The notes under the pieces: model-generated
Databases searched by the model: none
The model's input: the letters and a program-made list of their open reading frames with translations, nothing else
What the model was told of the DNA's origin: nothing
Origin: Terrabacter aerolatus
GTDB taxonomy: Bacteria > Actinomycetota > Actinomycetes > Actinomycetales > Dermatophilaceae
Length of the DNA: 40,000 bases
Assembly: GCF_007991735.1 (NCBI RefSeq)
Contig: NZ_BJYX01000024.1
Span: forward strand, 7,727 to 47,726
Reading direction: 5' to 3'
Position numbers and translations under genes: made by a program
In this document: positions 9,444 to 29,530 of the stretch, in pieces
How the letters are laid out: each line of letters opens with the position of its first letter
Numbering within the stretch: position 1 is the first letter of the stretch

Positions 9444-12400
9444 GCGATTTCCTCTGCTTCGGACCAAGCTTCGGTTGCTGGGGGCGAGATCGAGTCGGCC
9501 ATGGCCGTGAGGTTGGCGATCAGTTGTTCACGGGCCTCAGCGTATTCGCGTTGCACGTCAGAGGGACTGCCGTTGCCGAGGCTGTGCTCAAGCAGTCGGA
9601 CCGTTTGCCTTGCCATCTGGAGCCAGGCACCTACCCGCCGTGCGGGCTCATCCCAGTCGCCGTTGAGGACCTGCAGTTTCTCGTCGTGTGTGAGTTGATC
9701 CCAGCGACTCAGCTCGGCAAAGGCCGCCTCGACCTTGCGTTGGTCACCGGGCTTGACGGACTTGACTGCGGCCTGGAGTTCGGCAGGGTTGATTCCGCCT
9801 GGCAGCGCACCGGCGGCAGCGCGCTCGTTGACGAGGACGAGAAGTTCCCAGGCGACGTCGGCGAGCTCACCTCCGAGGTCGGAAAGATCGGGTACTAGGT
9901 TTGAAGCTTCCGCGTGCAAGGAGTCGATCGACGCGAGCCGCGCCTCGATCGTCGAGACCGAGGATCTGATCAGGTCGGGCGTCGAGGCCGGCCAGGGTGC
10001 GCCCGTGACCTCACTTCGGACGACCTTGGCTACCTTGCTGAGGTCCAAGGCAAGCGGCTTACCGGAGCCTTGGCTGAATGAAGCGTGCCGGAGCAGTCGC
10101 TGCTGGAGTTGGCCGCGGCCGACACGAGTGACGGCGCTGCCGCTACGAGCACCTTCCTCCAGGAAGCTGTGGAGGGCCCGGAGACCGGCCCGCGACTCGA
10201 GATCCGGGCGGTCTGGGACCGGGGCGAACATGGCCCGGATCCGACTAGTGGTGTCCGACTTGAAGGCGTCGGCGATTCCGAGCCCTCGCGCGATGCTGAG
10301 GAGCACTTCTACGAGCCGAGCTAACTCGGTGTCGTTGTCGGGGCGCTGCGGAGGGAGCAGATTGATGCCCACTCTGGATGCCCATCTATCGATGGCAGTC
10401 TCGGTGAGCCTCTGCAGTCGCTCTCCATCCGGCACGTCTGCCCAGTTGTTCTTATGATTTGCCCACGCGAGTGCGCGAAGGGCTCGCATGTCGTCGGGGT
10501 TGGATCGGTCCATCGGTAACACAGCGTCAGCGATTTTCGCTTGGCTGAACTCGACCATCTTCGCCTCGAACCCTGGCGCGAGGGCCTTGTCGTTGCCCCA
10601 CAAGCTCTCGCCGCCGTATCCGTCCTCGAACGGGAGGCGCTGTCGAACCGCCTGGAAGACGATGTTTCGCAGATCGTTGATCTCACCTTGCAGGATGTTG
10701 CCCGTTGCGAGCCAGCCATCGACAGCCTTGACGAGCGGCGGGTCCGGAGCGACTGGCTGCGGAGTCGAGGTGGAGGTAGCCGAAGGCTTGGTGGGCAGCG
10801 TCGGACGGGAGTCCGGAGTAGGTGGCCTTGCGTCGCCGAGATCGTCGATCGGTGTGACATCAAAGGCGTCATGGATCGTCGGAGCGAGATTCTCCGCGCC
10901 TGGCCCCGAGCCCCAAAAGCGTACGAGGCGGATGCGACGCTCGGAAAGCTCCTCGTCTCCGGGCGACCGCAGTTTGAACTGGTCTTCGATGTTCGTGAGG
11001 CGGTGGCTTGCGCCGCCCCGGAAGTCGTTGGCAAAGCCTTCGCTCGGGAATCGACCGTGGTTGATCTCAGCCTGGTCACGATGCAGGACCGGGCGGAGGA
11101 CACGCGTCAGCACGTTGCGAGCGACGAAGCTGCCGTCGGTGGAGTGACTCTTAATTGCACGATCGAGGGCGGCTTGGTTGAACGGGAAGAGGCCGTAACC
11201 GTCAACCTGGCCGAACGATGAGTGGCATGCCGCGTTGACAGGACACTGCTCGCACGCATTGGGCACCTCCTCTTCGCGTGCATGCGCTGCATCAAGCTCC
11301 GATGCCCCGACTCGAACAGCGTTGAGGTATCGGCTGGCGAACCCTGTCGGCTGGAAGGACGCGTTCATTCCATCGGGTAGGTCGAGGTCGAACACTCGGT
11401 ACGTCCGCGTGTAGACCGTCTCTGGCATCTGGTTGATGAAGTAACCGGTCGTGACGGCCATGACCACGCGCATTGGACAGAGTTTCTGCGCCTCGGTCGA
11501 GATGAGCGTGATGGCATCAATGAGGCCACCCTGAATCCCTTGGAAGATCGAGAAGTCCTCGATGAGCACAAGCAGTTCAAGGCCCTGTTTGTCCAACTCG
11601 ACGCGAACGTCGACGAGGATCTGTTTGAGGTCGTCACCGCCCACGCCGAAGACCTCGCTCACAGATGGACCGAGTTGCTCGTTGATCATCTTGGCGGCTA
11701 GTTCACGGAACGAGTGCTCACTCGTGAGTGCTCCAGCGACCTCGCGGGCCGCTTGGCCGGCCCGGTTGACGTCGTCCACAGAAAGATTCAGGTCGTCGGG
11801 GGTGAACCCGAAGGCGTCCTCTTTGTCCTCGTCGCCCTTCCCGGACAACTTTTCGCGCACCAGGCGGGCGATTGGCCCGTTCTGGTCGAGCAGTCGGCTC
11901 CGAAAGACGTCGTCGCCAAAGAGGGCAGGAAGGCCACCGGCAGAGGCGAGATAAGATCGGAGTTCGATCTCCTCGGGGGAGCCGTCGGTGCGGTTGCCGC
12001 GCGTCTCGATGTTCACCGCAAGGGCGTTGCGCAGTTTCAGTTGCGCAGTCTTTTCGTCCGCGGCGGCATCGACCGCGGTCGCTACCTTCGACCGGAGTTC
12101 GTCGGCTCGTTCGCCGCTCGCGTGCTCAAGAATCAGTTCGAGGATCCCGCGCAAGGACATGCGGTGCTTGGGCACGAAGATTAGGCGGGTCGATTCCTTG
12201 GTTTCCAAATGAGCCCGTAGCCACCGAACGAGGTGGGACTTGCCCGTACCGGACTTACCCAGGATCGGAATGATCGGCTGGTCCGCAGGCTGGTCCTGGA
12301 CAGCGCGAAGCAGGGCTTGCTCGTCAACAACGGCGCCGCCGCGGGCGCTGTCTACTTGATCGCGCTGCGTGATGGGGATCGTGCTGTGTGTGGCAAGAAA

Positions 12401-12496
12401 GACGCCGTCCGACGTGCTTTCCGCCTCGACAGGGATGATGGCTGAAGCCTCGTGTGCGTCCCAGCAAGCCGCTGGGAGGTTGCCGCGCCAACTCAC
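9440..12496 (-). CDS. large P-loop NTPase (DpdH position)
   Basis: Walker A ILGKSGTGKSHLV and Walker-B-like LLVLIEDFS. The track ORF (to 12904) has an Arg/Pro-rich N-terminal extension that overlaps the upstream gene. The real start is most likely the GTG at 12496. It is preceded by GGAGGA 5 nt upstream and overlaps the upstream TGA (GTGA at 12493-12496). Confidence 0.75.
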   Translation of the reverse strand: MSWRGNLPAACWDAHEASAIIPVEAESTSDGVFLATHSTIPITQRDQVDSARGGAVVDEQALLRAVQDQPADQPIIPILGKSGTGKSHLVRWLRAHLETKESTRLIFVPKHRMSLRGILELILEHASGERADELRSKVATAVDAAADEKTAQLKLRNALAVNIETRGNRTDGSPEEIELRSYLASAGGLPALFGDDVFRSRLLDQNGPIARLVREKLSGKGDEDKEDAFGFTPDDLNLSVDDVNRAGQAAREVAGALTSEHSFRELAAKMINEQLGPSVSEVFGVGGDDLKQILVDVRVELDKQGLELLVLIEDFSIFQGIQGGLIDAITLISTEAQKLCPMRVVMAVTTGYFINQMPETVYTRTYRVFDLDLPDGMNASFQPTGFASRYLNAVRVGASELDAAHAREEEVPNACEQCPVNAACHSSFGQVDGYGLFPFNQAALDRAIKSHSTDGSFVARNVLTRVLRPVLHRDQAEINHGRFPSEGFANDFRGGASHRLTNIEDQFKLRSPGDEELSERRIRLVRFWGSGPGAENLAPTIHDAFDVTPIDDLGDARPPTPDSRPTLPTKPSATSTSTPQPVAPDPPLVKAVDGWLATGNILQGEINDLRNIVFQAVRQRLPFEDGYGGESLWGNDKALAPGFEAKMVEFSQAKIADAVLPMDRSNPDDMRALRALAWANHKNNWADVPDGERLQRLTETAIDRWASRVGINLLPPQRPDNDTELARLVEVLLSIARGLGIADAFKSDTTSRIRAMFAPVPDRPDLESRAGLRALHSFLEEGARSGSAVTRVGRGQLQQRLLRHASFSQGSGKPLALDLSKVAKVVRSEVTGAPWPASTPDLIRSSVSTIEARLASIDSLHAEASNLVPDLSDLGGELADVAWELLVLVNERAAAGALPGGINPAELQAAVKSVKPGDQRKVEAAFAELSRWDQLTHDEKLQVLNGDWDEPARRVGAWLQMARQTVRLLEHSLGNGSPSDVQREYAEAREQLIANLTAMADSISPPATEAWSEAEEIA

Positions 12497-13416
12497 TTCT
12501 TTCCTCCATGGTTCACGATGGCGTGCGTTTGGCGCGCGGCGTCGAAACGGGACAGGCGGATGCCTTGTGCGTCTGGGAGCGTCTCGAATCGGATCCGTCC
12601 GCGTTCCTCGAGGATGCGCAGTGCCTGTCCGACTGAACTGTCCGCGCACTCGGCGACGATGCCTGGGTCGGGATCGGCTCCAAGGAGAGCCACGAGTCCG
12701 AACCGCATTGACCCACCATGAAGGACGGGGAGCGCTTGTCCGATGCGTGCCAACAGGTCGTGGATCGAGAGACGTTCGGCGGGCATCGCTCGTAGGGCGT
12801 CCTCCACCGCGGGCACCGGCAGTGGAACCACGCCGGTCCGGTCCTTCATGACTGACGGGGTCGCCAAACCGAGCGCGACAATCCAACGCGACGCAGCCAC
12901 CCAACGCGTGTCATTGACGATGGCCCACGATTCACGATCGGTTGTGCCGAACTGTTCAGACTGGAGTGTTTGTAGATTCTCGGTCCACGACAGCGGCTGC
13001 CCCAACGCGTCCTGTGCCAACACCCAGGTCAGGGCTCGGTTGAGGTCACGAGCGCCGCTCGTGTGTCCATCGCCCAGCTGCGTTGCCCAGACATCGCCAT
13101 CCCGGCCGAGGTCGAACACGCGGGCTTGAAGGAGTCGTCGAAACTCCGGAGGGTCGAACGGTGCCTTCGGCGTCGGAACCTGAGCGCCTAGTTGAAGAGT
13201 TCCGTCGGGATTCGTCTCGAGCACGTTGATGGCGCGCAGAGAGGAGATCGTGTTCTTCAGTCCGCCGGCGGCCTCGCTGCCGGGGTTCAGCCCCTCCGGC
13301 TTGAAGGCGGCAACGAGATCGTCCTCGGTTGACGAACGTCGTGCGTCGAGAAGGTAGTTCACGATGGCGCGGCCGAGGCCTGGCAATGTGCGTGGCGGGT
13401 TGAGTACTGCCATCAC
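12493..13416 (-). CDS. hypothetical protein (DpdG position)
   Basis: 307-aa ORF. Its GTG start overlaps the upstream helicase stop (GTGA at 13413-13416). No motif recognised; assignment by synteny only. Confidence 0.6.
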   Translation of the reverse strand: MMAVLNPPRTLPGLGRAIVNYLLDARRSSTEDDLVAAFKPEGLNPGSEAAGGLKNTISSLRAINVLETNPDGTLQLGAQVPTPKAPFDPPEFRRLLQARVFDLGRDGDVWATQLGDGHTSGARDLNRALTWVLAQDALGQPLSWTENLQTLQSEQFGTTDRESWAIVNDTRWVAASRWIVALGLATPSVMKDRTGVVPLPVPAVEDALRAMPAERLSIHDLLARIGQALPVLHGGSMRFGLVALLGADPDPGIVAECADSSVGQALRILEERGRIRFETLPDAQGIRLSRFDAARQTHAIVNHGGKK

Positions 13417-16010
13417 AGGCTCCTAAGGAAGTACGACAGCGTCCAATGCGGGAAGCGAATGGCCTTCACGGGTTGGCCCGGATACTGAGGGTCCGGCGTG
13501 TCCTCCGGGAGTACGACGATCCGAAGGGAACCCGCCTCCCCAGCAAGCCAACTCAACTGAGGTGGATCGGTCCGGTCCAATAGGACCAGCGTGGGGATCG
13601 GGAAGGTTCGGGGCGGACCCGCGATGATCGGATCGATGGCGACCAGTCCCTCGGGTGCAGAGCGACCTGCCCCCACCACTGCGGGCAAGCCGGTCAGACT
13701 TGCAGATGCCAAGATTCCTCGGACCCCGTGTGTCACTGCCTTTGTGACGAGTTCGGCAAGGTGGATCCGAAGATCTCCCTCGGGATAGGTCACCACCAGT
13801 GACCGGCCGCTGGAGGCCATCGACGCAAGGGTGGGACTTACTCCGCGGTGCAACAGGGGGAGCGGTGCTTCTTGCACCACTGGTCGTGCAGCCCGCAAAG
13901 ACGGCTCATGGACATGCGCGGCAGCGGGACATCCCGAACACGCGGGTGCGACCACCTGGTGAGCGCGCATCGCGCCCACCTCGTCGTACGCATATTCCTC
14001 GCTCAGGATTGAACCCCAGCATTCATCGAGCCTGAACATGCGCTCGATGCGGTCGCGCGAGCCGGCTTCTGAATAACGGATCTCACGTCGGACCTTGTCG
14101 ATCGCACGCAGGACGGTGGCCTCATCGACATTCGCAATGCCCGAGCGGATGCGCACGGTCGCACGCGTCACGTACGCGGACCAGGCTGTATCGACTCGCT
14201 TCTGCCAATCGGCTTCAGATTCGTCCTCGGCGCGCTCCAGGGTCGGCGGGGGAGTGTCGACAATGTCGAGCACCCCGGCCCGTTGTAGCAGGACCAGAGT
14301 GTTGCGGTTCCACAGTTGGTTGCTGTCGGAGGCGTGGGAGAGCCAGGGAGGGACGGTGCTGGTGTCCACGACGAGTTCGCGGCGCGTTGGGTCCGCCGAG
14401 ATGCGCGCCGTACGCATCGCGTCCCATCGACCCCAACTCTTCTTATCGCCAAGAACGGTGGCATTCTCGATGCTGCGACCTTCCTGGGCATCGGCGGTGC
14501 TCGGCATCCAGACCGATACGGCTGCGTGACCGTCGCGGCCACCGCGGCCAACCTCTTGATAGAAGCGGTCGACTGAGGCCGGCACACAGGCGTGGATGAC
14601 AGAACGAACGTCACTCTGGTCCACACCAAGCCCGAACGCACTGGTCCCCACGACCACGTCGACGGACGTTGGGCCAGCATCGCCAGACCACGCCCTCAGG
14701 ATTTCGAGCCTGTCGTCCGCGTGCACATCGCCATGGAAGACCGCCGTGCGGCCAAATCCCGCCTCTCGGAGTCGAACTGCAAGCGTGTCGGCCGACTCCT
14801 TCTTGCTGGTGTAAACGATCGCCGGCCGCGGAAGGTGGTGGAGTGCTTCGACAACCCGATCGAGGCGCGCCTCGTTAGGGACGGGCGGCGCAAATAGGTA
14901 ACGGAGTTCCGTGCGCAGGTACGTGGAACCTACGAACAGCGAAGTGTCGGCTCCGGCGAACAGTTCGTCGTTCAGCAAGAGGCCCTGTCGGGAGAGTGTC
15001 GCAGTCAGCAGTTCTACGTGGGGCGGTGCTACCCCTTGAGCCCGGGCGACCTCTCTCAGTTCGGCGATCAGGGAGGCGACTACTTGAAACTCGGGTCGAA
15101 AGCTCAGGCCCCAGGTGCGTACGAGGTGCGCCTCATCGATCACAACGTGGCTCAGTTCGCCCCGGGCAGCTAGGCGCCGCAGAGTCTGCGCCAGACCGGT
15201 GACCAGAGCCTCGGGCGAGGTGTAGAGAACCCTTTGCGTCCCTTCGCGCAGGCGCTCCTTGATCGCTTCCCTTTCGGTCGCGGCACGATCGCCGTAGTAG
15301 GCCAATTCCTGAGGAAGGCCCTGGTTTGGAAACCGCTGATGAAGTTGGCGCTCCTGGTCAAGCGCCAGCGCAATGGTCGGCACCACGACGACTGTCACGC
15401 TGGTACGAGCGAGTAGTCCAGGGGCGATGCCGACCAAGGACTTACCTGTTCCGGTGGGTAGGACCACGTGGAGTGTGCTGCCTGCAGGTGCAAGCGCAGC
15501 AGCCCGGACGGCGCTCGCTTGGCTTCGCGAACGGTAGGTGTCAATCCCAGCAATCGCAGCCACGGACGGGTCTACCGGCACTGCCATGTCGTGCCGGGCA
15601 AAGGTGGATACGACGCCCTCCGGACCTTCGAAATTGTCGGGGCTTGTGCAGGCCATATCGATCCAACGCCCGTCGCCGCGGAGCCAGTCGGGCGCCCAGT
15701 CTGGGCCAAGGGTGACGCGGTGCTCGTGCAGCCCGAACGTGGCGACGTCGAGGTTTGCCCGGCGAAGCGTCTCGAGCGGAAGGCCGCGGTCGTAGAGGCG
15801 AAGGGTCAGGTAGCTGTTGGAATGCCCTGTAGTCCCTCGGCGATGACGCAGTACCTGGCCTAGAAGCGCGGCAACGTCACCCGCGATCTCGGGCCCCGGA
15901 ACATCTGAGAACCATGCATCTACCAGTCGGCGGTGGGGCCCGATGAGAAGATCGCGGTTGTTTGTGGCTCCAGCCAACTTGGCTGCCCCCAGGTTCCACT
16001 GATCCGTCAT
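13413..16010 (-). CDS. dpdF: RecQ-like DEAD/DEAH superfamily-2 helicase (DpdF-like)
   Basis: 865 aa. Walker A LPTGTGKSLVG, motif II VVIDEAHLV, TAT (LLTATLS), motifs V/VI VVGTSAFGLGVDQ...YQEVGRGGRDG. Starts 1 nt after the SNF2 gene stop. Confidence 0.85.
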   Translation of the reverse strand: MTDQWNLGAAKLAGATNNRDLLIGPHRRLVDAWFSDVPGPEIAGDVAALLGQVLRHRRGTTGHSNSYLTLRLYDRGLPLETLRRANLDVATFGLHEHRVTLGPDWAPDWLRGDGRWIDMACTSPDNFEGPEGVVSTFARHDMAVPVDPSVAAIAGIDTYRSRSQASAVRAAALAPAGSTLHVVLPTGTGKSLVGIAPGLLARTSVTVVVVPTIALALDQERQLHQRFPNQGLPQELAYYGDRAATEREAIKERLREGTQRVLYTSPEALVTGLAQTLRRLAARGELSHVVIDEAHLVRTWGLSFRPEFQVVASLIAELREVARAQGVAPPHVELLTATLSRQGLLLNDELFAGADTSLFVGSTYLRTELRYLFAPPVPNEARLDRVVEALHHLPRPAIVYTSKKESADTLAVRLREAGFGRTAVFHGDVHADDRLEILRAWSGDAGPTSVDVVVGTSAFGLGVDQSDVRSVIHACVPASVDRFYQEVGRGGRDGHAAVSVWMPSTADAQEGRSIENATVLGDKKSWGRWDAMRTARISADPTRRELVVDTSTVPPWLSHASDSNQLWNRNTLVLLQRAGVLDIVDTPPPTLERAEDESEADWQKRVDTAWSAYVTRATVRIRSGIANVDEATVLRAIDKVRREIRYSEAGSRDRIERMFRLDECWGSILSEEYAYDEVGAMRAHQVVAPACSGCPAAAHVHEPSLRAARPVVQEAPLPLLHRGVSPTLASMASSGRSLVVTYPEGDLRIHLAELVTKAVTHGVRGILASASLTGLPAVVGAGRSAPEGLVAIDPIIAGPPRTFPIPTLVLLDRTDPPQLSWLAGEAGSLRIVVLPEDTPDPQYPGQPVKAIRFPHWTLSYFLRSL

Positions 16011-16011: not shown

Positions 16012-19000
16012 TCAGTTCGTCAGTGCTCGGCCGGAGAGAACCACAAGCCCAGTGCTGTCAAGCCGAAGTGAGGGCGCGGTCACGGCGGCGGACATGGCGC
16101 GGGCAATGACTTCCTCGCGATGGAGTTCCTCATGCAAACGCACGAGTTCGGATCCTGTAGTGCGCATGGCTCGCAGTCGCAACTGGGAGAGCCTTGTTGC
16201 CGCGTCGCGATCGGCGATGGCAGAAGCTCGCTCGACCGCCGAACGAACGTCCTCGCGACTGCGGACGAGATGCTGAGCCGCTCTTTCCGCGGATCGCCAA
16301 GACTCGCCCCAGTGTTGTGCGGGAATGAGGTCGTAGGCGTGCTGGATCCTCATACGGTTTAGCGAGTAGTCGCCGCCGGCACGAGTGGTGCCCGGTTTCG
16401 CGTATGGGGCGTCGAGGGCGTCGAGATGCGTCCGCGCGGTCAACTCCTGCGCGCTGGCTGTCATCCAGACGCTGACGATGATGGGAGGAAAGATTCCATC
16501 GGCCCGCCGCGTAAAGGCGAGCTGGTCGATGCCCGCACTGACTGTCACGAGTTCACCACGCGGGTCCCTTGAGGAGGGAACATCAAGGGGGTTCGCCTCG
16601 ACGGCGTAGTCGAATCGGTAGAGCGGAGTGTCCTCACGGGGCCATTCGGGCATCGAACGCCACATGCCGAAGGCTCGGCCACGATCGTCGTGCCACAGGA
16701 AGTCGCTGACGGCGTCGATGAACGGGTCTCCGTAGCGGTAGAGGTGGACGTCCTCGCTCGAGAGGGCAAACTCCCGAACGAAGGTTCCGACGTGGTCCTT
16801 CAACGGAAGGAAGTCGCGAACGAGGCGCGATGCCGGGATCAGCGGAATCTGCGCTTGCTTCCCCGGCAGACGGCCGAGCGACTCGTATCCGCCCAAGCCA
16901 GTGGCAGGGTGGCCTCTCCGCTCGAATCTAAGGTTGCCCGCCGCGCCATTCGCTGCGAGAAGGTTGTTGCTCACGTTGGCGAATGTTGACGCATCGGATT
17001 CCACGTCAGCGATCCGCGCATACACGGAGCGCTCGTCGACGCTCGTCTCCAGGCTGTCGAGCGCGTCCTGTTCGCGGACGCGCTCGATCTCCGCGTCCAG
17101 CATCTCTCGAACCCGCGCCACCGCGGAGGGAACACCGTCGAGTCCCATTTGAAGGAGGATGTGCCACGCCTCGTCCGTTGCGTTGTCGACGGCTTGCTGA
17201 AGGCTGGCGACCGAGTTGTCGAAGATCCCGAAACCGTCCTTGAGGATGCGCTCCCAGGCGCCGGAGTAGGCGTCATCCGCGTGTCCCGAAACGACATATG
17301 ACCGCCACCCCCCGGACCCTTCGGGCGACCACCGGTCACAACGGCCGATGCGCTGCTCGAGACGGTTTGCTGATCCCGGAAGTCCCAGATGCACCAGAAC
17401 ATTCGCGAACTGGAGGTTGCGACCCTCTTCGGCCGATGAATCTGCGACCATGACTGCGGCATTATGGATCGCCTCGAACGAGCGCACCGAGCGGTCGTTC
17501 TCCTGGCTACTTTGGGTCGTCACATGGCAGAAGACAGACGTGGCGCCGAAGAGATCCTTGAGCTCCTCAGCCAGTTCGGTTGCCATTTCAGTTGTGGGGC
17601 AGAAGACGACAGCACGCTCGTTGGACGTCATGACCTCGCTGAGCGCGTCAGCGAACGGGCGGCTGACGGTTGCCCGTCGGTCCGCGTAGGCCACGTCCTG
17701 CACGATGCGCTTTAGCGCCGCGATTTCGTCAGCGGCTAGCGGCGCGGCGGCCCGCTCCAGTGCCCACTTCTGCAGGGCACTCGGGTCAAGGCTCACTGCT
17801 GCGGCCTCGGCGAATGCGCGCCCGGCCAGGGTCATCGCCGCCGGGTTGCCCTCTGCCGACGCAAGAGCCTGTTCCCGCCATCGGTCGAGAGCCTCTGCAA
17901 CGTCGTCGCGCAGGGTCGACTCCAGGGGAAGTGGCTCAGGCGCGCGACGACCAGAGACCCGATAGGTGCCCTCCAACGCCGTGGTACGCCGGGTCCGGAG
18001 CATTCGTCGGTGTACGCGGTACACCTCGGCAATGTGCGTGCGCAGCGCCTGGATCAGGGATGCCGTCTCGTCCCTGTCTTGAGTGGCCACCGACTCGCGG
18101 GCGCGCGCTACCAGATCGCGGACCTCGGCGTCGTCGGGGAACGAGGCTTCGATCTCCGTCAGGCGCCCCTTCAGAAGGACCCCTGGGAGGCTGGGTTGCA
18201 GCCCGAGAAAGACCCGGCCCAAGCCCGCACGAGCCTCCAAGCGCGATCGAAGTTGCTCCGCATTGGTGTCGGCATAAACCGCCGGGTCTAGCAGTTTGAG
18301 CATCGCGAGGAAGGCGTCCTCGTTATGCAGCGCTGGTGTCGCGGAGAGCATCAGTAGGCGCGGACTTGCAAGTGCGATCTCACGAAGCCGCTGGAAGCGG
18401 AGGGCGAGGTCGGGATTCGTGCTGACTGACATTCGTGCAAGGTTGTGTGCCTCGTCGACTAACACGAGGTCGGCCGCGTCCCACGCCGACGGCTCGTCAT
18501 CACGACTGAAGCGAATATGCGACTGGGTGAAGTCTTGCACGCGGAATTTCTGGGTCAACTCTCGCTTCCACTGGTCGAGTAGGAACGGAGGCAAGATGAA
18601 CTGGATCCGAAGACTGGGGTTATCCAGCAGCATTTGGCGGATGATGATTCCCGCCTCGATGGTTTTGCCTAGGCCGACCTCATCGGCGAGAAGATAGCGC
18701 TGGACAGGATCCTGTAGAACGCGCCAAGCGGTCTCGACCTGGTGGGCATGGAGTTCGATGCAGCTCGACAGCACAGCGCGCATGCCATGAGCGGCCGAGC
18801 GCTGCTGAAGGATGCTGCGGAGGAACGGCAAGCGCAGTTCAGCGAGCATGGGCGACTCGAGCATGCCGGCCTCGCCAAAACCCACCGGGTCCGTCAGTGG
18901 CTTATTCCATCGCACGTAGAGGCGTTCTTCCGGGATGAAGCCTTCCCACTCGTGGCCCCGCACATGGATGTCGTTGTACGCCGTGATCTCGATGACGCGT

Positions 19001-19443
19001 CCGGAGCGCCAAATGCCGGTTGGGTCCTGCCAGAAGGCACGTTGCTCGGGAGGGAGGGTCACTCGCCGGAGGCTTTCGCGTGACACAGCCTCCCGATAGC
19101 GGTCCGAAGGCGCCTGGCCTGGCGTGTCGAAGTACTCAAGGACCAGAGCATCACCTTCCCGCGCAACGAGTTTCCCGGGCCCGAGGACGTTGTCGGAAGA
19201 AGTGAGCAGGTCACCTCCCGATAGCGACTTGCCCCGGCCCCCCTGCCTGGACGTGGAGGAGGCCTTGCTGACCCTTCTCGCTGGTGTGTGGTTCTCGACC
19301 GCTTCGCCATTCGCGTCTCGCGACCCTCGGCATCGTGGGAACTGCGAGCAACCCCAGAACGCCTTGCCGACGTTGGCGCCCTTCGATGCAAACTGCATGA
19401 CCATTGCCGCTTCGCAACGCGGACAACGAACGTGGTCAACCAC
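16012..19443 (-). CDS. dpdE: SNF2-family helicase with N-terminal topoisomerase-type C4 zinc ribbon (DpdE-like)
   Basis: 1143 aa. N-terminal CPRC...GCSQFPRC zinc ribbon. SNF2 motifs LLADEVGLGKTIEAG, LVLVDEAHNL, LMLSATP, and C-terminal RLEQRIGRCDR. GTG start at 19443, with GGAGGG 6 nt upstream. Confidence 0.85.
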   Translation of the reverse strand: MVDHVRCPRCEAAMVMQFASKGANVGKAFWGCSQFPRCRGSRDANGEAVENHTPARRVSKASSTSRQGGRGKSLSGGDLLTSSDNVLGPGKLVAREGDALVLEYFDTPGQAPSDRYREAVSRESLRRVTLPPEQRAFWQDPTGIWRSGRVIEITAYNDIHVRGHEWEGFIPEERLYVRWNKPLTDPVGFGEAGMLESPMLAELRLPFLRSILQQRSAAHGMRAVLSSCIELHAHQVETAWRVLQDPVQRYLLADEVGLGKTIEAGIIIRQMLLDNPSLRIQFILPPFLLDQWKRELTQKFRVQDFTQSHIRFSRDDEPSAWDAADLVLVDEAHNLARMSVSTNPDLALRFQRLREIALASPRLLMLSATPALHNEDAFLAMLKLLDPAVYADTNAEQLRSRLEARAGLGRVFLGLQPSLPGVLLKGRLTEIEASFPDDAEVRDLVARARESVATQDRDETASLIQALRTHIAEVYRVHRRMLRTRRTTALEGTYRVSGRRAPEPLPLESTLRDDVAEALDRWREQALASAEGNPAAMTLAGRAFAEAAAVSLDPSALQKWALERAAAPLAADEIAALKRIVQDVAYADRRATVSRPFADALSEVMTSNERAVVFCPTTEMATELAEELKDLFGATSVFCHVTTQSSQENDRSVRSFEAIHNAAVMVADSSAEEGRNLQFANVLVHLGLPGSANRLEQRIGRCDRWSPEGSGGWRSYVVSGHADDAYSGAWERILKDGFGIFDNSVASLQQAVDNATDEAWHILLQMGLDGVPSAVARVREMLDAEIERVREQDALDSLETSVDERSVYARIADVESDASTFANVSNNLLAANGAAGNLRFERRGHPATGLGGYESLGRLPGKQAQIPLIPASRLVRDFLPLKDHVGTFVREFALSSEDVHLYRYGDPFIDAVSDFLWHDDRGRAFGMWRSMPEWPREDTPLYRFDYAVEANPLDVPSSRDPRGELVTVSAGIDQLAFTRRADGIFPPIIVSVWMTASAQELTARTHLDALDAPYAKPGTTRAGGDYSLNRMRIQHAYDLIPAQHWGESWRSAERAAQHLVRSREDVRSAVERASAIADRDAATRLSQLRLRAMRTTGSELVRLHEELHREEVIARAMSAAVTAPSLRLDSTGLVVLSGRALTN

Positions 19444-19448
19444 TCAGA

Positions 19449-19480
19449 ACCCTCCGTACGACCGGCGACTCCGGGAGGGT
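19449..19480 (-). promoter_or_regulatory. candidate RNA hairpin sequestering the Shine-Dalgarno of the SNF2 (dpdE-like) gene
   Basis: On the minus-strand mRNA, ACCCUCC (19480-19474) can pair with GGAGGGU (19455-19449). That is a 7-bp stem with an 18-nt loop. The 3' arm is the GGAGGG ribosome-binding site 6 nt upstream of the GTG at 19443. Confidence 0.35.
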
Positions 19481-19517
19481 AACTCGGAAACCGGGTCCGT
19501 GGGGGCAAACGGCCGGT

Positions 19518-19535
19518 TAGGACACGGATGTCCTA
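19518..19535 (-). other. small hairpin overlapping the stop codon of the dpdB-like gene
   Basis: TAGGACA-cgga-TGTCCTA: a perfect 7-bp inverted repeat with a 4-nt loop, covering the TAG stop (19533-19535). It lies at the only intergenic gap of the operon. Confidence 0.3.
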
Positions 19536-20636
19536 CCTCAGCGCCTGTAGGAGGAAGTTGGTCAGGAGTCGGATGTCGCTGGGTGTGTTTTGGAGGCCGT
19601 TCCACCGGCGCACGTCGTCCGCAGCGAACTGCCAGGTGCCAGTGGTCCAAGCGCAGTGTGGGACCAGGCGAGCAAGCCTGCCCTCCAGATCGAGAGCATC
19701 CAGTTCGGTCTCGTCGTACCCCTCAGTCATAGCATCCATGACGTACCCCAGAGACTGAACTCCGACGCCATGGGTGAGGCGGGACTTGCGGGGTTCGGCC
19801 TGCCACGCGTCGTAGAACGTGGATTGCACAGCACTCCAGAAGCGGTCCAGATGCCCGACGATCTTGTCAACGTTCCCGGATCCGTCGTCAGGGTTCCGGT
19901 ATTGGTATAGAGCGCCGTCGGAGAGGCTGTTCTCGATCATCCTGAGGACGCTGTTGTCCTTAATCTCTCCGTCAGGTTGGGTGGGCGTCGAGATTCGACT
20001 GGCAAAGGGGTGCCCAACTTGCTTGCGAGGGCCAGAATTTAGCCGCGTCATGATCTGCGCGGGTAATTGCTTTCGCGCATACGCAGGCGGCAGGTGGCCC
20101 GTAGTATTTGGCAGCAGTTCGTGGATCAATCCCTTGGGAAGTGGCTTGGTGTTATTGACCAGGATGAATTGCGACCGCTGCTCTTCTTCGCCGTCGGCGA
20201 TGAATCCAACCGCCGCGAGAGGAAATTCTGCCAGGTCGGCATCGCGAATGGCTGCGCTGCGCTGCTGTCCATCGACGAGCCACGCTGGGCGTGATTCCTC
20301 GGACGCTGCCTCGTCGACCGGAATTATGAGTTCGCCCACGGTCGCATAATCAACGGCCGACTCATGGCTAATTTCGAAGCGGACTCTGGCGTCAAAGGCA
20401 AATACCACGGCGTTAGGAAGCAGGGCCCCGTCGGATTCAAGATAGCGTCGAATCGCCCGAATATGGCTGATCACCTCGGGACGCTGATAGCCCTTGAGGT
20501 CGGCTTCATCGCGATGGACCCGCGACACCGTAGCGAAGTCATGAATGCGCTTCCCGTCCACGCCAAATGAGTAGATATGCTTCCGGCCCTGTCGAATCCG
20601 CAGGGCAGGAAGGCGCAAATCGTATCGGTCAGCCAT
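19533..20636 (-). CDS. dpdB: DGQHR-domain ParB/DndB-like protein (DpdB-like)
   Basis: 367 aa. GYQRP...WLVDGQQRS motifs of the DGQHR / ParB-like nuclease superfamily. Its ATG overlaps the dpdA-like stop by 8 nt, with GGAGGA upstream. Confidence 0.8.
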   Translation of the reverse strand: MADRYDLRLPALRIRQGRKHIYSFGVDGKRIHDFATVSRVHRDEADLKGYQRPEVISHIRAIRRYLESDGALLPNAVVFAFDARVRFEISHESAVDYATVGELIIPVDEAASEESRPAWLVDGQQRSAAIRDADLAEFPLAAVGFIADGEEEQRSQFILVNNTKPLPKGLIHELLPNTTGHLPPAYARKQLPAQIMTRLNSGPRKQVGHPFASRISTPTQPDGEIKDNSVLRMIENSLSDGALYQYRNPDDGSGNVDKIVGHLDRFWSAVQSTFYDAWQAEPRKSRLTHGVGVQSLGYVMDAMTEGYDETELDALDLEGRLARLVPHCAWTTGTWQFAADDVRRWNGLQNTPSDIRLLTNFLLQALR

Positions 20637-21867
20637 GGGATTCCTCCGCTAAGTCCTCGTGGGCAAGTCGATGCATCTTATCGGCGAGCACCGACAGGTT
20701 GTGAAACCCGCGCCTCTTGTTGCGTTCGGTGCCTCGAAATATGGCTACCTCGATGCCAAGCTTCTGACAGACAGAGCATGAGCATGCGGTCCAGGGGGCA
20801 GCGCGAAGAGTCCGTTCATATTGAGCGCGATAGGTCTTCTTGCTCTGGCAGAGTCGCTCGTAAGAAGACAGGGCCTCCAAGGCCTCCTGCAGGCGCGTCT
20901 CTGAACCGTCGAACGCCCGCAGCGAGCGTAGGCATTCGCGTTCGCCCTTGAGGGCGTCACTTTGGGACACCCGTCCGGCAAGAATCGCGCGCCGGAGCGT
21001 CGGGTTGCCGTCCACTTGGGGGACTCTCAGTGCCACGAATGCCTCGTCGCGAGTGTGATAATTGAGGCGGTCATCCATGAAAGCTTGCCGAAACGCGGAA
21101 GTGCTATCAAAGCTGGTTACGCCGAGTTCCGCAAAGCGTGCCATCGACTCAACCCGGGTGATTCCAAGCAGGTGAAGTTCGCATTCGGGCTTGCGCACCG
21201 CTTCGATCGCTTCGAGGCATGCGAGTATCTCCCGCGTCTTGAGCGGCACCATGCCGCCGAGCGCAATACGGCGAAATCCGAATTCCTGAAGGTTTCTCAC
21301 GCTGTCCGCATAACTAGCAGGGCTCCACCCTTGAGCCGCGCCGACAGGTTCGATATCTGCTCCGCGCTCCGCGACCCGGGTGATGAACTCTTCTGCAAGT
21401 CGCAGGGTCAAACGTCGGCGCTCGGCCCAGGCGGGGTCTACTGTTGAAAAATCCGCGGCAGGTTGGTAGCCGAAGATGATGTGGTCCACGCTTACTCCGG
21501 CATCAAAGCCGCATCCTTCGTAGAAATCGAGAGTCTCGTCCACGGTGACAGGAGGAACAGGTTCGCTGGCGTAATTGAACGCACCGTTGTCACCCAGAGT
21601 TTTAACCTCACTAGGAAGGCGAAAAAACTTCTTCAAGCCCAGGCGGTAAAGGCGTGCTCTCTGGGCTGCTGTGTACTTGCCCGCGCCCTTAATCGAACCG
21701 TCCACTATGGATTTGCTTACGAGGATTCCGTCGTAAGGTGCCCGAGCAAGGACTTCATGGGCGTATCGATCGTCACGCTGTCGAATTCGGTGGGCAGCGT
21801 ATTCGTCGTGCAGGAAGTCGTACGTGGGGCTGACCAGGTCCTGGCTGTCGGGGAAGAAGAACTTCAC
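20629..21867 (-). CDS. dpdA: tRNA-guanine transglycosylase-family paralogue (DpdA-like DNA 7-deazaguanine transglycosylase)
   Basis: 412 aa. TGT-like elements: LGDNGAF, RIALGGMVPL (compare TGT AIGGL), GVTSFDSTSAF (compare TGT FD[CS]), and the zinc site CSCSVC...RGFHNL (CxCxxC...H). GTG start overlaps the upstream stop (GTGA at 21864-21867). Context is two DGQHR genes, not tRNA-modification genes. Confidence 0.85.
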   Translation of the reverse strand: MKFFFPDSQDLVSPTYDFLHDEYAAHRIRQRDDRYAHEVLARAPYDGILVSKSIVDGSIKGAGKYTAAQRARLYRLGLKKFFRLPSEVKTLGDNGAFNYASEPVPPVTVDETLDFYEGCGFDAGVSVDHIIFGYQPAADFSTVDPAWAERRRLTLRLAEEFITRVAERGADIEPVGAAQGWSPASYADSVRNLQEFGFRRIALGGMVPLKTREILACLEAIEAVRKPECELHLLGITRVESMARFAELGVTSFDSTSAFRQAFMDDRLNYHTRDEAFVALRVPQVDGNPTLRRAILAGRVSQSDALKGERECLRSLRAFDGSETRLQEALEALSSYERLCQSKKTYRAQYERTLRAAPWTACSCSVCQKLGIEVAIFRGTERNKRRGFHNLSVLADKMHRLAHEDLAEESHG

Positions 21868-23000
21868 TTGCGATGGGTCCGTTCCGCTAGATAGGTGCGG
21901 ATGAGGAAGTTTGACAAGGCGCTGATGTGCCGGGGCGTGTTTTGCAAGTCATTCCATGCGAGTCCAAGTGCGTCCCAGGAACCCCCTGTCCAAGCGCAGT
22001 GAATAGCGATGAGCCTGAGTTCCGTTGCAGCTGCCGCTCTAGCTTTCGGATCGTCGTCGCGCACGTGTGTCATGACGCGGTCCATGAGTCGTCCCATAGC
22101 GCGAATGCCAACGCCATGCATCAGACGACTCTCAGTCGCAGGTTTACCCCATGCGTCATGGAAGACATCGTGGACTGCTCCCCAATATGCGATGAGCAGA
22201 CGCCGGATGCCTTCCGTATCGGTCGTGCCAGTCGCGATGTTGCGATATGGGAAAAGGACGCCAGAAGGAGACTCGATGGACTCGCGGACGGCCTCGATCA
22301 GGCTTGTGTCTGTGACAAAGGTCGACCTTTTGGCGTCGGGGTCCGTCGAAGCGCGCCGAATGATTCCCCGGAACGGCGACTCCGGATCTTGATTGAGCAT
22401 GTCCACAAGCGCAGATGGCAACTGCCGTGTTGCCATACGGCCCGAAGGGACGCGAGTGATCTCAGGTAGCAGTTCGGTCACCAGTCCGGAGGGAAGCGGT
22501 TGAACCGTGTTCACCCTCAAGAACTGTTCGCGTTGTAGTTCAAGGGTGGGCGCAACGAATCCAGCGACAGGCACTGGCAGGCGCCGGTTCTTCGTGCGAG
22601 ACAACGCGAGGCTTCGCTGTTGGCCGTCTACGATCCACGCTGGTCGAGGACCATCGCTATCTCTACTGATCGGAATCTCCAATGTTCCGGAGACTGCCAG
22701 GCCGTCGCTCGTCGAGGGTCCACGACTCGACCTCCAGCGAACCTCCTGCGGGAGGGCGAGGATCAGGCCGTTGGGAAACAGTGGGGCCTCGGAGTCGAGG
22801 TACTCCTGAATCTGCTTGACGTGCTTCTTCTTCTCCGGCCTCTGGTAGCCAATCAGCTTGCCGGCCTCATCGCGGCTGATGCGTGCGACGTCGGCAACAA
22901 GGTCGACTTCCTCAGCGGCGAGTGTGAACAGGTAGAGGGGGGTGTCATCACTTTGGAGCACCTTCAGTGCTCGCCGTTCCAGCCATTCAATGCCGCTCAT
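21864..23000 (-). CDS. second DGQHR-domain ParB/DndB-like protein (full-length paralogue of the DpdB-like gene)
   Basis: GYQRP...WIVDGQQRS. It aligns over its whole length with the 19533..20636 product, for example QFLRVNTVQPLPSGLVTELLP vs QFILVNNTKPLPKGLIHELLP, and CAWTGGSW...LQNTPRHISALSNFL vs CAWTTGTW...LQNTPSDIRLLTNFL. I prefer the ATG at 23000 (MSGIEWL) because of its ATGA overlap with the upstream stop; the track start at 23048 would overlap by 52 nt. Confidence 0.8.
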   Translation of the reverse strand: MSGIEWLERRALKVLQSDDTPLYLFTLAAEEVDLVADVARISRDEAGKLIGYQRPEKKKHVKQIQEYLDSEAPLFPNGLILALPQEVRWRSSRGPSTSDGLAVSGTLEIPISRDSDGPRPAWIVDGQQRSLALSRTKNRRLPVPVAGFVAPTLELQREQFLRVNTVQPLPSGLVTELLPEITRVPSGRMATRQLPSALVDMLNQDPESPFRGIIRRASTDPDAKRSTFVTDTSLIEAVRESIESPSGVLFPYRNIATGTTDTEGIRRLLIAYWGAVHDVFHDAWGKPATESRLMHGVGIRAMGRLMDRVMTHVRDDDPKARAAAATELRLIAIHCAWTGGSWDALGLAWNDLQNTPRHISALSNFLIRTYLAERTHRK

Positions 23001-23866
23001 GAGGTGAGGGCCTCCTCGAATAGTCGCGTGAACCGGCGCTGCTCGCACGCTATGCCGGAGTTGCGCAGATTCCTTAAAGCAACTGTCTTGGGCAACTTCG
23101 GATTCAGTCCTCGCATCTGGTCGATCATTTGCTTGATGGCGTGATCAGAGACGGGCTTGCGGTCGTAGCGTTCCTGCTGCTGAGCGCCCAGGGCCCAGGT
23201 AGCCCAGTTGCGGTGGACCTCGGGTGCGGCTGGCATCTTGCCATCGGCGATCTCTAACCAACGGATCGCCATGCGTGCGTTCAAACTCGTGATCGTGCCG
23301 CCGAGTGCTCCTCGGAGGTTCCGATCCGATCGGATCCGGAGACTCGCCGGCGTGTCCGACGCCCCGCCGAAGACAACCGTCGATTGAGGATCGAGCGCTT
23401 GGAGGTCGTCCGTCATGGCCCGCGCGTACGACTCCGACAAGACCCATATAGAAGGGGCGTCGGCTCGAGGGCCAGCGGCGTGGGCGAGTTGCTTCCACCA
23501 AACGCTCGCATCAGGAGTGGCCTGCACCACGGAGTCACGGTGGCCGGTGGCGAACGTTGCTGCATAGGGCGGCGCGACGTCATCGACCGGGCGCAGGCCC
23601 AAGCCCGCAGACGCGACGAAGACCTCCGGTTGGAATCCAGTGCTCCGAGCGGTAGCGGCCAGTCGCTTGGCTTGAGTCCAACTCTCCCCCGCGTAGAGGT
23701 CGAGCAGACGCGTCGTCGGCCTTGTCGCACGGAGGCGGCCCACCCAGTCATCGGCGCGTTCCTTGACGGTGCCGGTTGGTAGCGTACGGGCCATCAGGTC
23801 GTGGTGCGGAGCACCCGTCTTGCGGTCGGTACAGGTGACCACGATCGTCAGTTTTTGGCGCGCCAT
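22997..23866 (-). CDS. dpdC: DpdC-like candidate (first gene of the operon)
   Basis: 289 aa. N-terminal TIVVTCTDRK...LYAGESW...VFVASAGLGLRPVDDVAPPYAATF resembles the DUF6884-type layout (C-[ST]-x-x-K, LY, SA-x-x-GL, PY) by eye. It is the remaining modification-module gene next to the dpdA/B-like genes. Assignment is tentative. Confidence 0.5.
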   Translation of the reverse strand: MARQKLTIVVTCTDRKTGAPHHDLMARTLPTGTVKERADDWVGRLRATRPTTRLLDLYAGESWTQAKRLAATARSTGFQPEVFVASAGLGLRPVDDVAPPYAATFATGHRDSVVQATPDASVWWKQLAHAAGPRADAPSIWVLSESYARAMTDDLQALDPQSTVVFGGASDTPASLRIRSDRNLRGALGGTITSLNARMAIRWLEIADGKMPAAPEVHRNWATWALGAQQQERYDRKPVSDHAIKQMIDQMRGLNPKLPKTVALRNLRNSGIACEQRRFTRLFEEALTS

Positions 23867-23967
23867 GACCCCTCGGATACAAAACTACGGCTTGGTTGTC
23901 GGTACTCTAGCGTGTAGTTTCGTCGGACGGTGCGCGTACGCACAGCCGGTATCGAGAGGTGGATGTT
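23867..23967. promoter_or_regulatory. divergent control region between the dpd operon and the preQ0 operon
   Basis: About 100-bp, comparatively A/T-rich spacer between divergent start codons. It contains the inverted repeat AAACTAC (23882-23888) / GTAGTTT (23914-23920) and GTGCG-cgta-CGCAC (23930-23943). GAGAGGTGG lies 6 nt upstream of the queC ATG. Promoters themselves are not identified. Confidence 0.4.
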
Positions 23968-24666
23968 ATGGGCCGCAAGGCAGTAGTGCTGCTCAGCGGG
24001 GGGCTGGACTCAACGACGGTCCTCGCGGTCGCGAAGGATCAGGGGTTCGAGCCGTACGCAATCAGCTTCCGCTACGGCCAACGGCATGTCGTTGAGCTCG
24101 AGGCAGCGCGCCGGGTGGCGCAGGCCGCCGGGGTGGAACGCCACGTCGTGTGCGACATCGACCTGCGAATATTCGGAGGGTCGGCGCTCACGGCCGACGT
24201 CGACGTGCCGAAGCATCAGTCGGCGGAGGAGTTGTCAGAGGACGACATCCCCATCACCTACGTCCCGGCACGCAACACCGTCTTCCTCTCCCTCGCACTG
24301 GCGTACGCGGAGGTCGTCGGCGCGACCGACATCTTCATCGGTGTGAATGCCCTCGACTACTCCGGATACCCCGACTGTCGGCCCGAGTACATAGTTTCGT
24401 ACGAACGCATGGCCAACCTGGCCACTCGCGCCGGTGTCGAAGGCAATGAACTGAAAATCCACACTCCCCTGATCAGCCTCACCAAGGCTGAAACCGTTGA
24501 GTTGGGAACGCGCCTGAGGGTCGACTACTCCCTGACCCTGTCGTGCTACGACCCCGATGACCAGGGGCGGGCGTGCGGTCACTGCGACTCATGTTTGTTG
24601 CGCTTGCGCGGCTTCGCTGACGCCGGACTCGTTGACCCGGTCATTTATCAGGAGGCGACTGCGTGA
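23968..24666 (+). CDS. queC: 7-cyano-7-deazaguanine (preQ0) synthase QueC
   Basis: N-terminal PP-loop [14 protein letters not shown] and C-terminal Cys cluster CY...[10 protein letters not shown]. The ATG at 23968 is preferred over the track's GTG at 23959 because of RBS spacing. Confidence 0.9.
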
Positions 24667-25298
24667 GTTACAAGATCAAGGAAATCTTCTACACCCTTCA
24701 AGGCGAGGGCACGCATGCCGGCCGCCCCGCCGTCTTCTGTCGCTTCACGTCCTGCAATCTGTGGACAGGCCGTGAAGCCGATCGTGAGAGAGCGATCTGC
24801 AAGTTCTGCGACACCGACTTTGTTGGCACGGACGGCGAAGGGGGCGGCAAGTTTCATGACGCCGAGGCGTTGGCGACCGCAGTGGCGTCTAAATGGCCGG
24901 TGAACGGCGGAGGGCGACCGATGGTTGTGTGCACGGGCGGCGAACCCTTACTGCAGCTGGATGCCGACGCCGTGGATGCCCTCCATGCACGTGGCTTCTA
25001 TGTTGCAGTCGAGACGAACGGGACTGTCACGCCGCCCCCCGGTATCGACTGGCTCTGCGTGAGCCCCAAGATCGGGTCCGAACTACTCGTCACGAAGGGC
25101 CACGAGCTCAAATTTGTCGTCCCTCAGGGCGGCGTCGATCCGACCACGTTCGAAGACCTCGAGTTCGAGAGTTACCGAGTGCAGCCGATGGATGGCCCGG
25201 ATGTGGCGGCGAACACCGAACTGGCCGTGCAGTTTTGCCTCGACCACCCGCTATGGCAGCTCAGTCTGCAGACGCACAAGCAGCTAGGAATACCGTGA
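24663..25298 (+). CDS. queE: 7-carboxy-7-deazaguanine synthase QueE (radical SAM)
   Basis: [16 protein letters not shown]...[29 protein letters not shown] carries the Cx14CxxC cluster variant known from Burkholderia-type QueE. GTGA overlap with the queC stop. Confidence 0.9.
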
Positions 25299-25663
25299 CC
25301 CACAACAGTGAGATCTATAGGGAGTTTACGTTTGAGGCGGCTCACAGGTTGCCGAACGTGCCCGAGGGCCACAAGTGTGCACGCCTGCACGGACACTCGT
25401 ACCTAGCGGCGGTCCACGTCGCTGGTCCCGTCGGCGAGGAGACGGGGTGGGTGCAGGACTTCGGCGAGATTAAGGCGGCATTCAAGCCCCTCGAGGAGCA
25501 ACTTGATCATCACTTCCTCAATGAGGTCCGGGGCCTCGAGAACCCGACGAGCGAGGTGCTTGCCAAGTGGATCTGGGATCGCCTCGTAGTGGCTCTTCCG
25601 AACTTGACCGAGGTGAGGGTGCGCGAGACGTGCACCTCGGGTTGCATTTACCGAGGAGAGTAG
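25295..25663 (+). CDS. queD: 6-carboxy-5,6,7,8-tetrahydropterin synthase QueD
   Basis: [27 protein letters not shown]...LDHHFLNEV is the PTPS/QueD His/Cys signature. The track ORF (from 24893) overlaps queE in another frame. The real start is the GTG at 25295, overlapping the queE TGA (GTGA). Confidence 0.9.
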
Positions 25664-25667: not shown

Positions 25668-26453
25668 GTGGCGCTGCCAGACATTCAGGACCAGGTTGAC
25701 GAGCGAGGAATCTCCCTCGACAACGTCGGCATTGACGGAGTCCGGATGCCAAGCACGTTCTCAGACGGGGTGACCACCCAGGCTGGAGTGGCGTCGTTTG
25801 AAGTAGTGGTGCAACTGCCCGAGGACCGGCGCGGCACCCACATGAGTCGCATGGTCGAGCTCGTACACGAGCACCTAGAGGTCATCGACCCGCGCGAGTT
25901 GCCCACAGTCCTGAAGCAGGCAGCCTCCCGCCTTGACGTTGGTGTGGCCACCATCGGCATTGGTCTGCCGTTCGCGACGCGCGTGTTGTCACCCGTGTCC
26001 GGGCGAGAGGCCTGGCAACCGAGTGACTTGCGTTTGCGGGCAACGCTGCGTGGGGACGTTTTCGAACTCGTAACATCTGTTACTAGCGAAGTGACCAGCC
26101 TGTGCCCATGTAGTAAGGCGATCAGCGATTACGGCGCACACAATCAACGCAGCGTTGTAACCGTGGATGTGCACGGACACGACGACTGTCCGTACCCCGT
26201 TTCGGTCGCCCGTCTGGTGGAACTGATTCGCCTGACGGGTTCTTGCCCCGTCTTTCCGATCGTGAAGCGACCGGACGAGCGCTCTATCACCATGACGGCC
26301 TTCGAGCACGCCGCATTTGTAGAGGACATGGCGCGCGACCTCTCTGGGCTGCTAAGGAAGCAGCGAGTGCGTCATAGCGTCCGAGTGCGGAATCTGGAGA
26401 GCATTCACAGTCACGATGCCATCGCCTCGTTGTCGTGGCGCCCCGAAGGGTAG
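25668..26453 (+). CDS. folE2: GTP cyclohydrolase I type 2 (FolE2 / GCYH-IB)
   Basis: 261 aa. LPDIQD...GISLDNVGIDGVRMP N-terminus, RRGTHMSR and SLCPCSK motifs typical of the FolE2/MptA family. Starts 4 nt after the queD stop. Confidence 0.85.
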   Translation: MALPDIQDQVDERGISLDNVGIDGVRMPSTFSDGVTTQAGVASFEVVVQLPEDRRGTHMSRMVELVHEHLEVIDPRELPTVLKQAASRLDVGVATIGIGLPFATRVLSPVSGREAWQPSDLRLRATLRGDVFELVTSVTSEVTSLCPCSKAISDYGAHNQRSVVTVDVHGHDDCPYPVSVARLVELIRLTGSCPVFPIVKRPDERSITMTAFEHAAFVEDMARDLSGLLRKQRVRHSVRVRNLESIHSHDAIASLSWRPEG

Positions 26454-26568
26454 AACCGTTCGCTCATCAAACTGAGACAAAGTTCGCCGGTCAGGGCTTC
26501 AACATGAACTGACTGTCGGCGTCTTATGTCATCATCTCTAGTGGGTCAAGAGGCGCGACCGTTACCCA

Positions 26569-29514: not shown

Positions 29515-29530
29515 ACGGTCATGACCGTGT

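Follow-up and report, generated by a model that had tools for sequence, protein, structure and literature searches.

The Dpd (7-deazaguanine) system of Salmonella Montevideo, dpdA-K, is the closest described relative of the locus considered here (Thiaville, 2016; Yuan, 2018; Gedara, 2023, PMC10164549). Its DpdB is encoded in single copy and is a homodimeric ATPase required for the activity of DpdA; no stable complex of the two Salmonella proteins was observed, and DpdC converts 2'-deoxy-7-cyano-7-deazaguanosine (dPreQ0) to dADG (2'-deoxy-7-amido-7-deazaguanosine) in vitro without DpdA or DpdB (PMC10164549). A 40,000-nucleotide stretch of Terrabacter aerolatus DNA (contig NZ_BJYX01000024.1, positions 7,727 to 47,726; hereafter the window) encodes the same families A-H, J and K. 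As in S. Montevideo, the window DpdA resembles tRNA-guanine transglycosylases (TGT), DpdB is ParB-like with a DGQQR motif, DpdC belongs to DUF6884, and genes for the synthesis of 7-cyano-7-deazaguanine (preQ0) lie alongside. Unlike loci of the enterobacterial type, which are ordered dpdC-dpdA-dpdB and have one DpdB, the window contains, between dpdC and dpdA, an additional DpdB of ancient divergence (DpdB', hereafter B'; the downstream copy is B). The island reads dpdC-B'-A-B-E-F-G-H-(I)-J-K-D on the minus strand, with queC/E/D and folE2 divergent from it, and the region containing both copies appears to be the modification operon, dpdC-dpdB'-dpdA-dpdB, of a complete and horizontally acquired Dpd restriction-modification island (Table 1).

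B' and B are almost certainly real, intact, full-length DpdB proteins of ancient paralogous origin, identity and ancestry being judged here together. BLASTP aligns them nearly end to end (37% identity over 355 amino acids, E = 2e-69). Each passes the curated 300-bit cut-off of the NCBIfam equivalog NF041060 "DpdB", whose match spans residues 7-362 of B and 24-382 of the long B' open reading frame (ORF), and one PADLOC DpdB model fits both equally (486 bits for B, 475 bits for B'). The DGQHR model TIGR03187 and Pfam DndB (PF14072) are also matched by each protein. The long ORF of B' covers 21864-23048, and its likely start is the ATG at 23000, with GGAGG in front, giving a protein of 378 amino acids. 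A preliminary description of the window had proposed two full-length DpdB paralogues aligning end to end, one on each side of the dpdA-like gene and coupled to it by overlapping codons, and had referred to a prototype cluster in which a single dpdB supplies the ATPase activity needed by DpdA; all of this holds. Every motif block it quoted is present in both proteins (GYQRPE, RPAW[IL]VDGQQRS, QFxxVNxxxPLPxGLxxELLP, SRLxHGVG, CAWTxGxW and LQNTP), and the overlaps can be read directly in the sequence. GTGA at 21867-21864 is common to the B' stop and the dpdA start, the dpdA stop and the B start overlap by 8 nucleotides (20636-20629), and ATGA at 23000-22997 is common to the dpdC stop and the B' start. 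Each copy adjoins and overlaps dpdA inside the dpd cluster.

Conservation is high in both copies. Columns conserved at 90% or more number 125 in B' and 113 in B, and only 11 columns are fixed differently between the two clades, which have GYQRPE, VDGQQR, QRxQF..VN, PLP..ELLP, SRLxHGxGI, WTxGxW and QN in common. DGQQR is kept in 120/120 B' and 153/153 B sequences; SspE, a related protein, needs this motif for nucleoside triphosphatase (NTPase) activity, and its analogue in ParB is GxxR, which binds the nucleotide (PMC10164549). The preliminary description had raised the prospect of a disrupted DGQHR motif in one copy, and this is not the case. To judge from these residues, B' is probably active. 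A degenerate pseudo-enzyme copy was considered and is ruled out, all motifs being kept in both clades, and a recent or local duplication, or an artefact, is ruled out by the 37% identity and by conservation in more than 120 loci. It is also extremely improbable that one copy is decaying, redundant or an assembly artefact, with no function of its own. Nothing specific speaks for this beyond the fact that duplicated defence genes are sometimes pseudogenized, whereas B and B' are both full length at just 37% identity, mean identity within Actinomycetota is similar for the two copies (63% and 66%) with more than 110 near-invariant columns in each, and the public assembly GCA_039532235.1 contains the gene as well.

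The two copies have separate histories. A neighbour-joining tree of 90 upstream and 91 downstream copies separates them at 100% bootstrap, and no two paralogues of one locus group as sisters. This division into two clades makes the duplication an ancient one. The single DpdB of Enterobacter lies in the downstream (B) clade, with 47% identity to actinobacterial B and 36% to B'. B is therefore the counterpart of the characterized Salmonella DpdB, the enterobacterial-type single DpdB being taken as the Salmonella prototype arrangement, and B', set apart by the 100% bootstrap split and the 36% identity, is a paralogue and not an equivalog. When rooted with B, B' is monophyletic (bootstrap 100), and for the informative taxa the branching within B' matches that of the DpdA+B tree.

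How widespread is the two-copy layout? A genome scan with the DpdA alignment, one genome per species, found at least 586 loci, the best 80 of which were examined. These 80 nearest loci are all from Actinomycetota, in many genera, and every one has dpdC-B'-A-B on one strand. In each of them the upstream copy scores 387-756 bits with B' vs 184-258 bits with B, and the downstream copy 471-689 bits with B vs 192-238 bits with B'. Plasmids with a DpdA relative (n = 17) are more varied: nine, all alphaproteobacterial, have dpdC-B'-A-B followed by queE and queD (with queC too in eight of the nine), five encode a long DpdA of ~700 amino acids, one (Enterobacter) has the single-DpdB order dpdC-A-B, and two have dpdC-A with no DpdB nearby. 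On the last two, an Acetobacter pasteurianus plasmid (L005; L numbers denote loci in our collection) and the Methylorubrum extorquens AM1 megaplasmid (L095), neither DpdB type is present within 5 kb of dpdC-dpdA; either DpdB is encoded elsewhere, or the systems are decayed or DpdB-independent. A metagenome scan was ranked by similarity to the Enterobacter DpdA, and 50 loci with enough flank were scored, comprising 28 dpdC-A-B, 17 dpdC-B'-A-B, three A-B and two B'-A-B; metagenome loci of the enterobacterial type had a single DpdB in every case. A search of all public proteins, clustered at 50% identity, gave 1144 clusters with a match to B' at E <= 1e-3, and the best 150 of these include 73 that are B'-like and 67 that are B-like. 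Terrabacter sp. Ter38, Knoellia locipacati, Agrobacterium vitis CP146243 and Caulobacter sp. S6 have the same dpdC-B'-A-B order with overlapping genes, and across two-copy relatives (Actinomycetota and alphaproteobacterial plasmids) B' is 44-91% and B 37-82% identical to the window proteins. The alphaproteobacterial versions differ from the window in that the que genes lie downstream and no dpdD-K are seen within flanks of 5-6 kb.

For a large class of dpd islands the two-copy arrangement is the usual one, and it has already been annotated and counted. The suggestion in the preliminary description of a notable local duplication is not supported, since the same order occurs in all 80 related genomes, over half of the plasmids and many metagenome loci, and the copies form two clades at 100% bootstrap. 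As to whether the two-copy form is common and already described, it is common; its description consists of database annotation, in that the NCBI Prokaryotic Genome Annotation Pipeline (PGAP) names both gene copies DpdB, and of a count. The count comes from a GATOR-GC survey of 2335 unique dpd islands, in which dpdB was the gene with the most additional copies (n = 801), with no further comment (PMC12235509). No discussion of two DpdB proteins or of a dpdB paralogue was found in the literature searched, which excluded Thiaville 2016 (PNAS) and Yuan 2018 (Mol Microbiol).

In Actinomycetota, Alphaproteobacteria and many metagenomic lineages, the B' lineage has been inherited together with dpdA and dpdB, and B' without B was found in no locus with adequate flank. 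One-copy loci are intermixed with two-copy loci in the DpdA tree and in the concatenated DpdA+B tree, in places with high support. The two-copy locus L122 is the sister of the enterobacterial one-copy clade (bootstrap 98), and a nested series, (L134,(L163,(L131,L170))), in which L163 has two copies and the others one, has a bootstrap value of 100. From these trees, the distribution is consistent with a single ancient duplication and repeated later losses of B', including loss in the lineage of the enterobacterial-type single-DpdB systems.

In a system where one DpdB can be lost, what would be the role of B'? The two proteins differ consistently in charge. In this island the net charge is +3 for B' and -7 for B, and among homologues the mean is +6 (basic) for B' and -3 to -5 (acidic) for B. 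B' is the more basic partner in 94% of 112 paired loci, with a mean difference of 9 charges, and the asymmetry holds in the actinobacterial, alphaproteobacterial and metagenome groups alike. Natural fusions also distinguish the copies. A DpdC~B' fusion of 689 amino acids occurs as identical DNA on three contigs from three independent metagenome samples. DpdA~DpdB fusions form seven clusters at 50% identity, with a B-type domain in every one; four of their loci were checked, and B' is a separate gene just upstream in three, among them L182 and L184, and is absent from L186, a Riflebacteria metagenome-assembled genome. Two other candidates, P0302 (apparently B'~A) and P0290 (a further C~B'), were discarded as probable frameshifts, the European Nucleotide Archive (ENA) contig in each case having many fragmented genes. 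L182 additionally encodes, at 1-1816, a second upstream protein with DUF6884 and TGT, giving that locus two transglycosylase-like genes.

The window island is itself a mosaic. For queE (88-90% identity), queC (88-89%), dpdC (64-68%) and B' (89%), the nearest counterparts are in Knoellia/Nocardioides loci (L017, L018); for dpdA (80%), dpdB (82%) and folE2 (82%), they are in Terrabacter (L008). This ancestry from two actinobacterial lineages points to recombination, with one breakpoint lying near the junction of B' and dpdA.

The gene order, the DpdC~B' and DpdA~B fusions and the recombination breakpoint favour a split of the two DpdB proteins by partner enzyme, and a B'/B heterodimer is compatible with them. 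The best explanation as a whole, to which we assign a probability of roughly 0.55, is that the operon encodes two enzyme-plus-loader pairs, possibly with a B'/B heterodimer. Each pair, dpdC-dpdB' and dpdA-dpdB, would consist of an enzyme and a ParB-like ATPase. As in Salmonella, B would work for DpdA in the ATP-dependent step that places preQ0 in DNA; the more basic B' would work for DpdC, in the conversion of dPreQ0 to dADG, and/or provide DNA targeting. Both of these nucleosides are known to occur in the DNA of Kineococcus radiotolerans. A heterodimeric B'/B clamp, derived from a homodimeric ancestor, could bring DpdC and DpdA to one site, as fusions of these two enzymes may do elsewhere; B' and B may still heterodimerize because the one characterized DpdB is a homodimer. 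Since B alone can homodimerize, B' would be a losable accessory subunit, and that B' is accessory is probable. Any specific physical model of its action is tentative, with the odds somewhat against it. The fullest such model, in which the ParB-like subunits of the C/B' and A/B pairs heterodimerize into an asymmetric clamp that couples preQ0 insertion to hydrolysis to ADG at one DNA site, and in which single-DpdB Salmonella is a reduced derivative that has lost B', is conceivable and rather doubtful.

A stricter form of partnership, which was the first proposal of the preliminary description, would make B' and B an obligate heterodimeric ParB-like clamp, replacing the homodimer as the single ATPase loader of DpdA and leaving DpdC uninvolved. 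Such a clamp would accord with the homodimeric state of the characterized DpdB, with B' never occurring without B, with the translational coupling of both genes to dpdA, with the DpdB motifs kept in both copies and with the complementary charges. However, loci lacking B' turn up repeatedly across the tree and show no compensating change in B, and this scattered absence argues against an obligate heterodimer. Moreover, the B' and B of this island differ in ancestry, which is unexpected for tightly co-evolved partners, and in the fusions the partner of B' is DpdC and that of B is DpdA, rather than the other DpdB. We therefore regard an obligate clamp as unlikely.

Conversely, B' might be a separate homodimer that loads neither DpdA nor DpdC and acts as a regulator or DNA-binding specificity factor, as DndB does for the dnd phosphorothioation system, or as a sensor for the restriction module. 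B and B' have Pfam DndB (PF14072) and DGQHR TIGR03187 in common with DndB, which is a DNA-binding regulator (PMC5699537), and the basic charge and evolutionary dispensability of B' would suit such a role. Unlike dnd proteins, B and B' score 39-47 bits against a cut-off of 450 with the dnd-specific DGQHR model, and their genomic context is dpd. The strong constraint on DGQQR and the other DpdB motifs of B', all of them present, and the existence of a covalent DpdC~B' fusion make an independent B' decidedly improbable; a restriction sensor is unlikely because the alphaproteobacterial plasmid loci have B' and no dpdD-K in their 5-6 kb flanks.

Two enzyme-plus-loader pairs that arose through one ancient duplication also face difficulties of their own, in both history and mechanism. 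Parsimony gives 11-13 losses of B', an approximate count because the neighbour-joining trees are only moderately supported at deep nodes, and regain of B' by recombination could stand in place of repeated loss. With distant outgroups (cyanobacterial DGQHR proteins), the rooted upstream clade received 52% and the downstream clade 68% support, for which reason the unrooted split and reciprocal rooting of the paralogues were used. The fusions may simply follow gene adjacency, and fusions of DpdC to DpdA occur in lineages without B' (the ~700-amino-acid DpdA of cyanobacteria and Paenibacillus). The plasmid loci with such fusions, L003, L004 and L096, have no close DpdB; at L003 and L096 a distant DGQHR/DndB gene lies on the other strand. 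Because Salmonella DpdC acts alone in vitro, it is not obvious that DpdC needs a loader of its own. A convergent residue change in B after loss of B' was looked for and none was found, which argues against an obligate heterodimer. Finally, B' shows only weak structural likeness to ParB and SspE, with Foldseek E values no better than 0.04.

That likeness comes from an AlphaFold 2 (AF2) model of B' with a predicted local distance difference test (pLDDT) score of 78.6. The top Protein Data Bank (PDB) matches of the model are ParB-N (5k5d, 6sdk, 7bnr) and SspE (7drs), with a best E of 0.039 and none at 0.001, and no solved relative was found in the PDB by sequence search. The DGQQR of the window proteins is analogous to the GxxR of the ParB box, and the characterized DpdB is dimeric, as are the ParB CTPase clamps. 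There is no significant sequence or structure match to either ParB or SspE, DpdB hydrolyses ATP, and, according to the literature, the motif on which DNA nicking by SspE depends is missing from DpdB. The eukaryotic TGT heterodimer, QTRT1/QTRT2, offers a precedent for paired paralogues in deazaguanine-insertion machinery. There it is the transglycosylase that is duplicated and one copy is catalytically dead, whereas here it is the accessory ATPase, and both copies look active.

The remainder of the island conforms to the Dpd families: for A, C, D, E, F, G, H, J and K the match either exceeds its cut-off or is strong (Table 1). It differs from the Salmonella prototype in that the restriction genes come after dpdB on the same strand and in that DpdI is doubtful, the ORF at the dpdI position having no Pfam or PADLOC match. 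The dpdC product has a weak DUF6884 match and resembles the protein encoded upstream of dpdA in Enterobacter pPOL9A (BLASTP, E = 1e-14). Several starts need adjustment. The true start of dpdE may lie downstream of that of the longest ORF because the family match begins at residue 77. The longest dpdH ORF would overlap dpdG by ~410 nucleotides and is probably over-extended at its 5' end; its start probably lies around 12470-12490, given that residue 146 is where the family match begins. The long ORF containing queD is probably over-extended as well, because the QueD match begins at residue 140.

The G+C content of the island (1-27100) is 0.59-0.64, lowest over dpdA and B', and that of the right flank (27100-40000) is 0.68-0.73. 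The window showed neither a tRNA gene nor an integrase, and a promoter and terminator scan of 19000-24200 gave nothing beyond shuffled expectation. Neither Pfam nor NCBIfam gave a match for the ORFs at the island edges, 33-674 (+), 671-1543 (+) and 26524-27087 (-). Genes in the right flank code for a DUF3293 protein, a two-component system, a DUF6308 protein and a GH15 glycosidase.

Table 1. Genes of the Dpd island in the window, in order along the sequence, followed by fusion genes at loci of the survey (locus:coordinates).
Feature	Position	Strand	Evidence and remarks
dpdD	1564..3729	-	NF041061 610 bits
dpdK (phospholipase D (PLD)-like, 174 amino acids)	3719..4243	-	PADLOC DpdK E = 1e-50; Pfam PLDc_2
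dpdJ	4240..8736	-	NF041067 1800 bits
candidate dpdI, by position only	8733..9467	-	NF041066 E = 0.0036, below cut-off
dpdH	9440..12904	-	NF041065 682 bits
dpdG	12493..13416	-	NF041064 152 bits
dpdF (RecQ-like helicase)	13413..16010	-	NF041063 649 bits
dpdE (SNF2-like helicase)	16012..19443	-	NF041062 1155 bits
dpdB (367 amino acids), canonical downstream DpdB	19533..20636	-	NF041060 500 bits; clade of enterobacterial single-copy DpdB
dpdA (412 amino acids), DNA transglycosylase inserting preQ0	20629..21867	-	NF041059 DpdA 599 bits, residues 1-400
dpdB' (378 amino acids)	21864..23000	-	NF041060 397 bits vs cut-off 300; PADLOC DpdB 475 bits; upstream DpdB clade
dpdC (289 amino acids), first gene of modification operon	22997..23866	-	PADLOC DpdC PDLC02817, E = 3e-101, full length
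queC, divergent from dpdC	23959..24666	+	TIGR00364 215 bits
queE	24663..25298	+	TIGR04508 335 bits
queD	25311..25663	+	TIGR03367 104 bits; within longer ORF 24893-25663
folE2 (GTP cyclohydrolase)	25668..26453	+	NF010200 216 bits
DpdC~B' fusion	L179:667-2736, L180:1825-3894, L181:80-2149		followed by separate dpdA and B-type dpdB
DpdA~DpdB fusions, 765-804 amino acids	L182:4001-6415, L184:3974-6271, L186:3976-6378		B-type domain
DUF6884 (DpdC)~TGT fusions annotated DpdA or "tgt"	L003:753-2849, L004:5158-7227, L096:4119-6263		cyanobacterial and Paenibacillus plasmids

As far as the literature searched shows, three aspects of these systems have seemingly not been described before: that B' and B are two distinct orthologous groups, that fusions and recombination pair B' with DpdC and B with DpdA, and that the single-DpdB systems of the enterobacterial type look like a derivative from which B' has been lost. 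About one-third of dpd islands have a second DpdB that is anciently diverged yet intact, and the use of one name, DpdB, for both genes in annotation masks the two orthologous groups. Comparison of the two copies could help to tell apart the ATPase, DNA-binding and enzyme-recruiting roles of DpdB.

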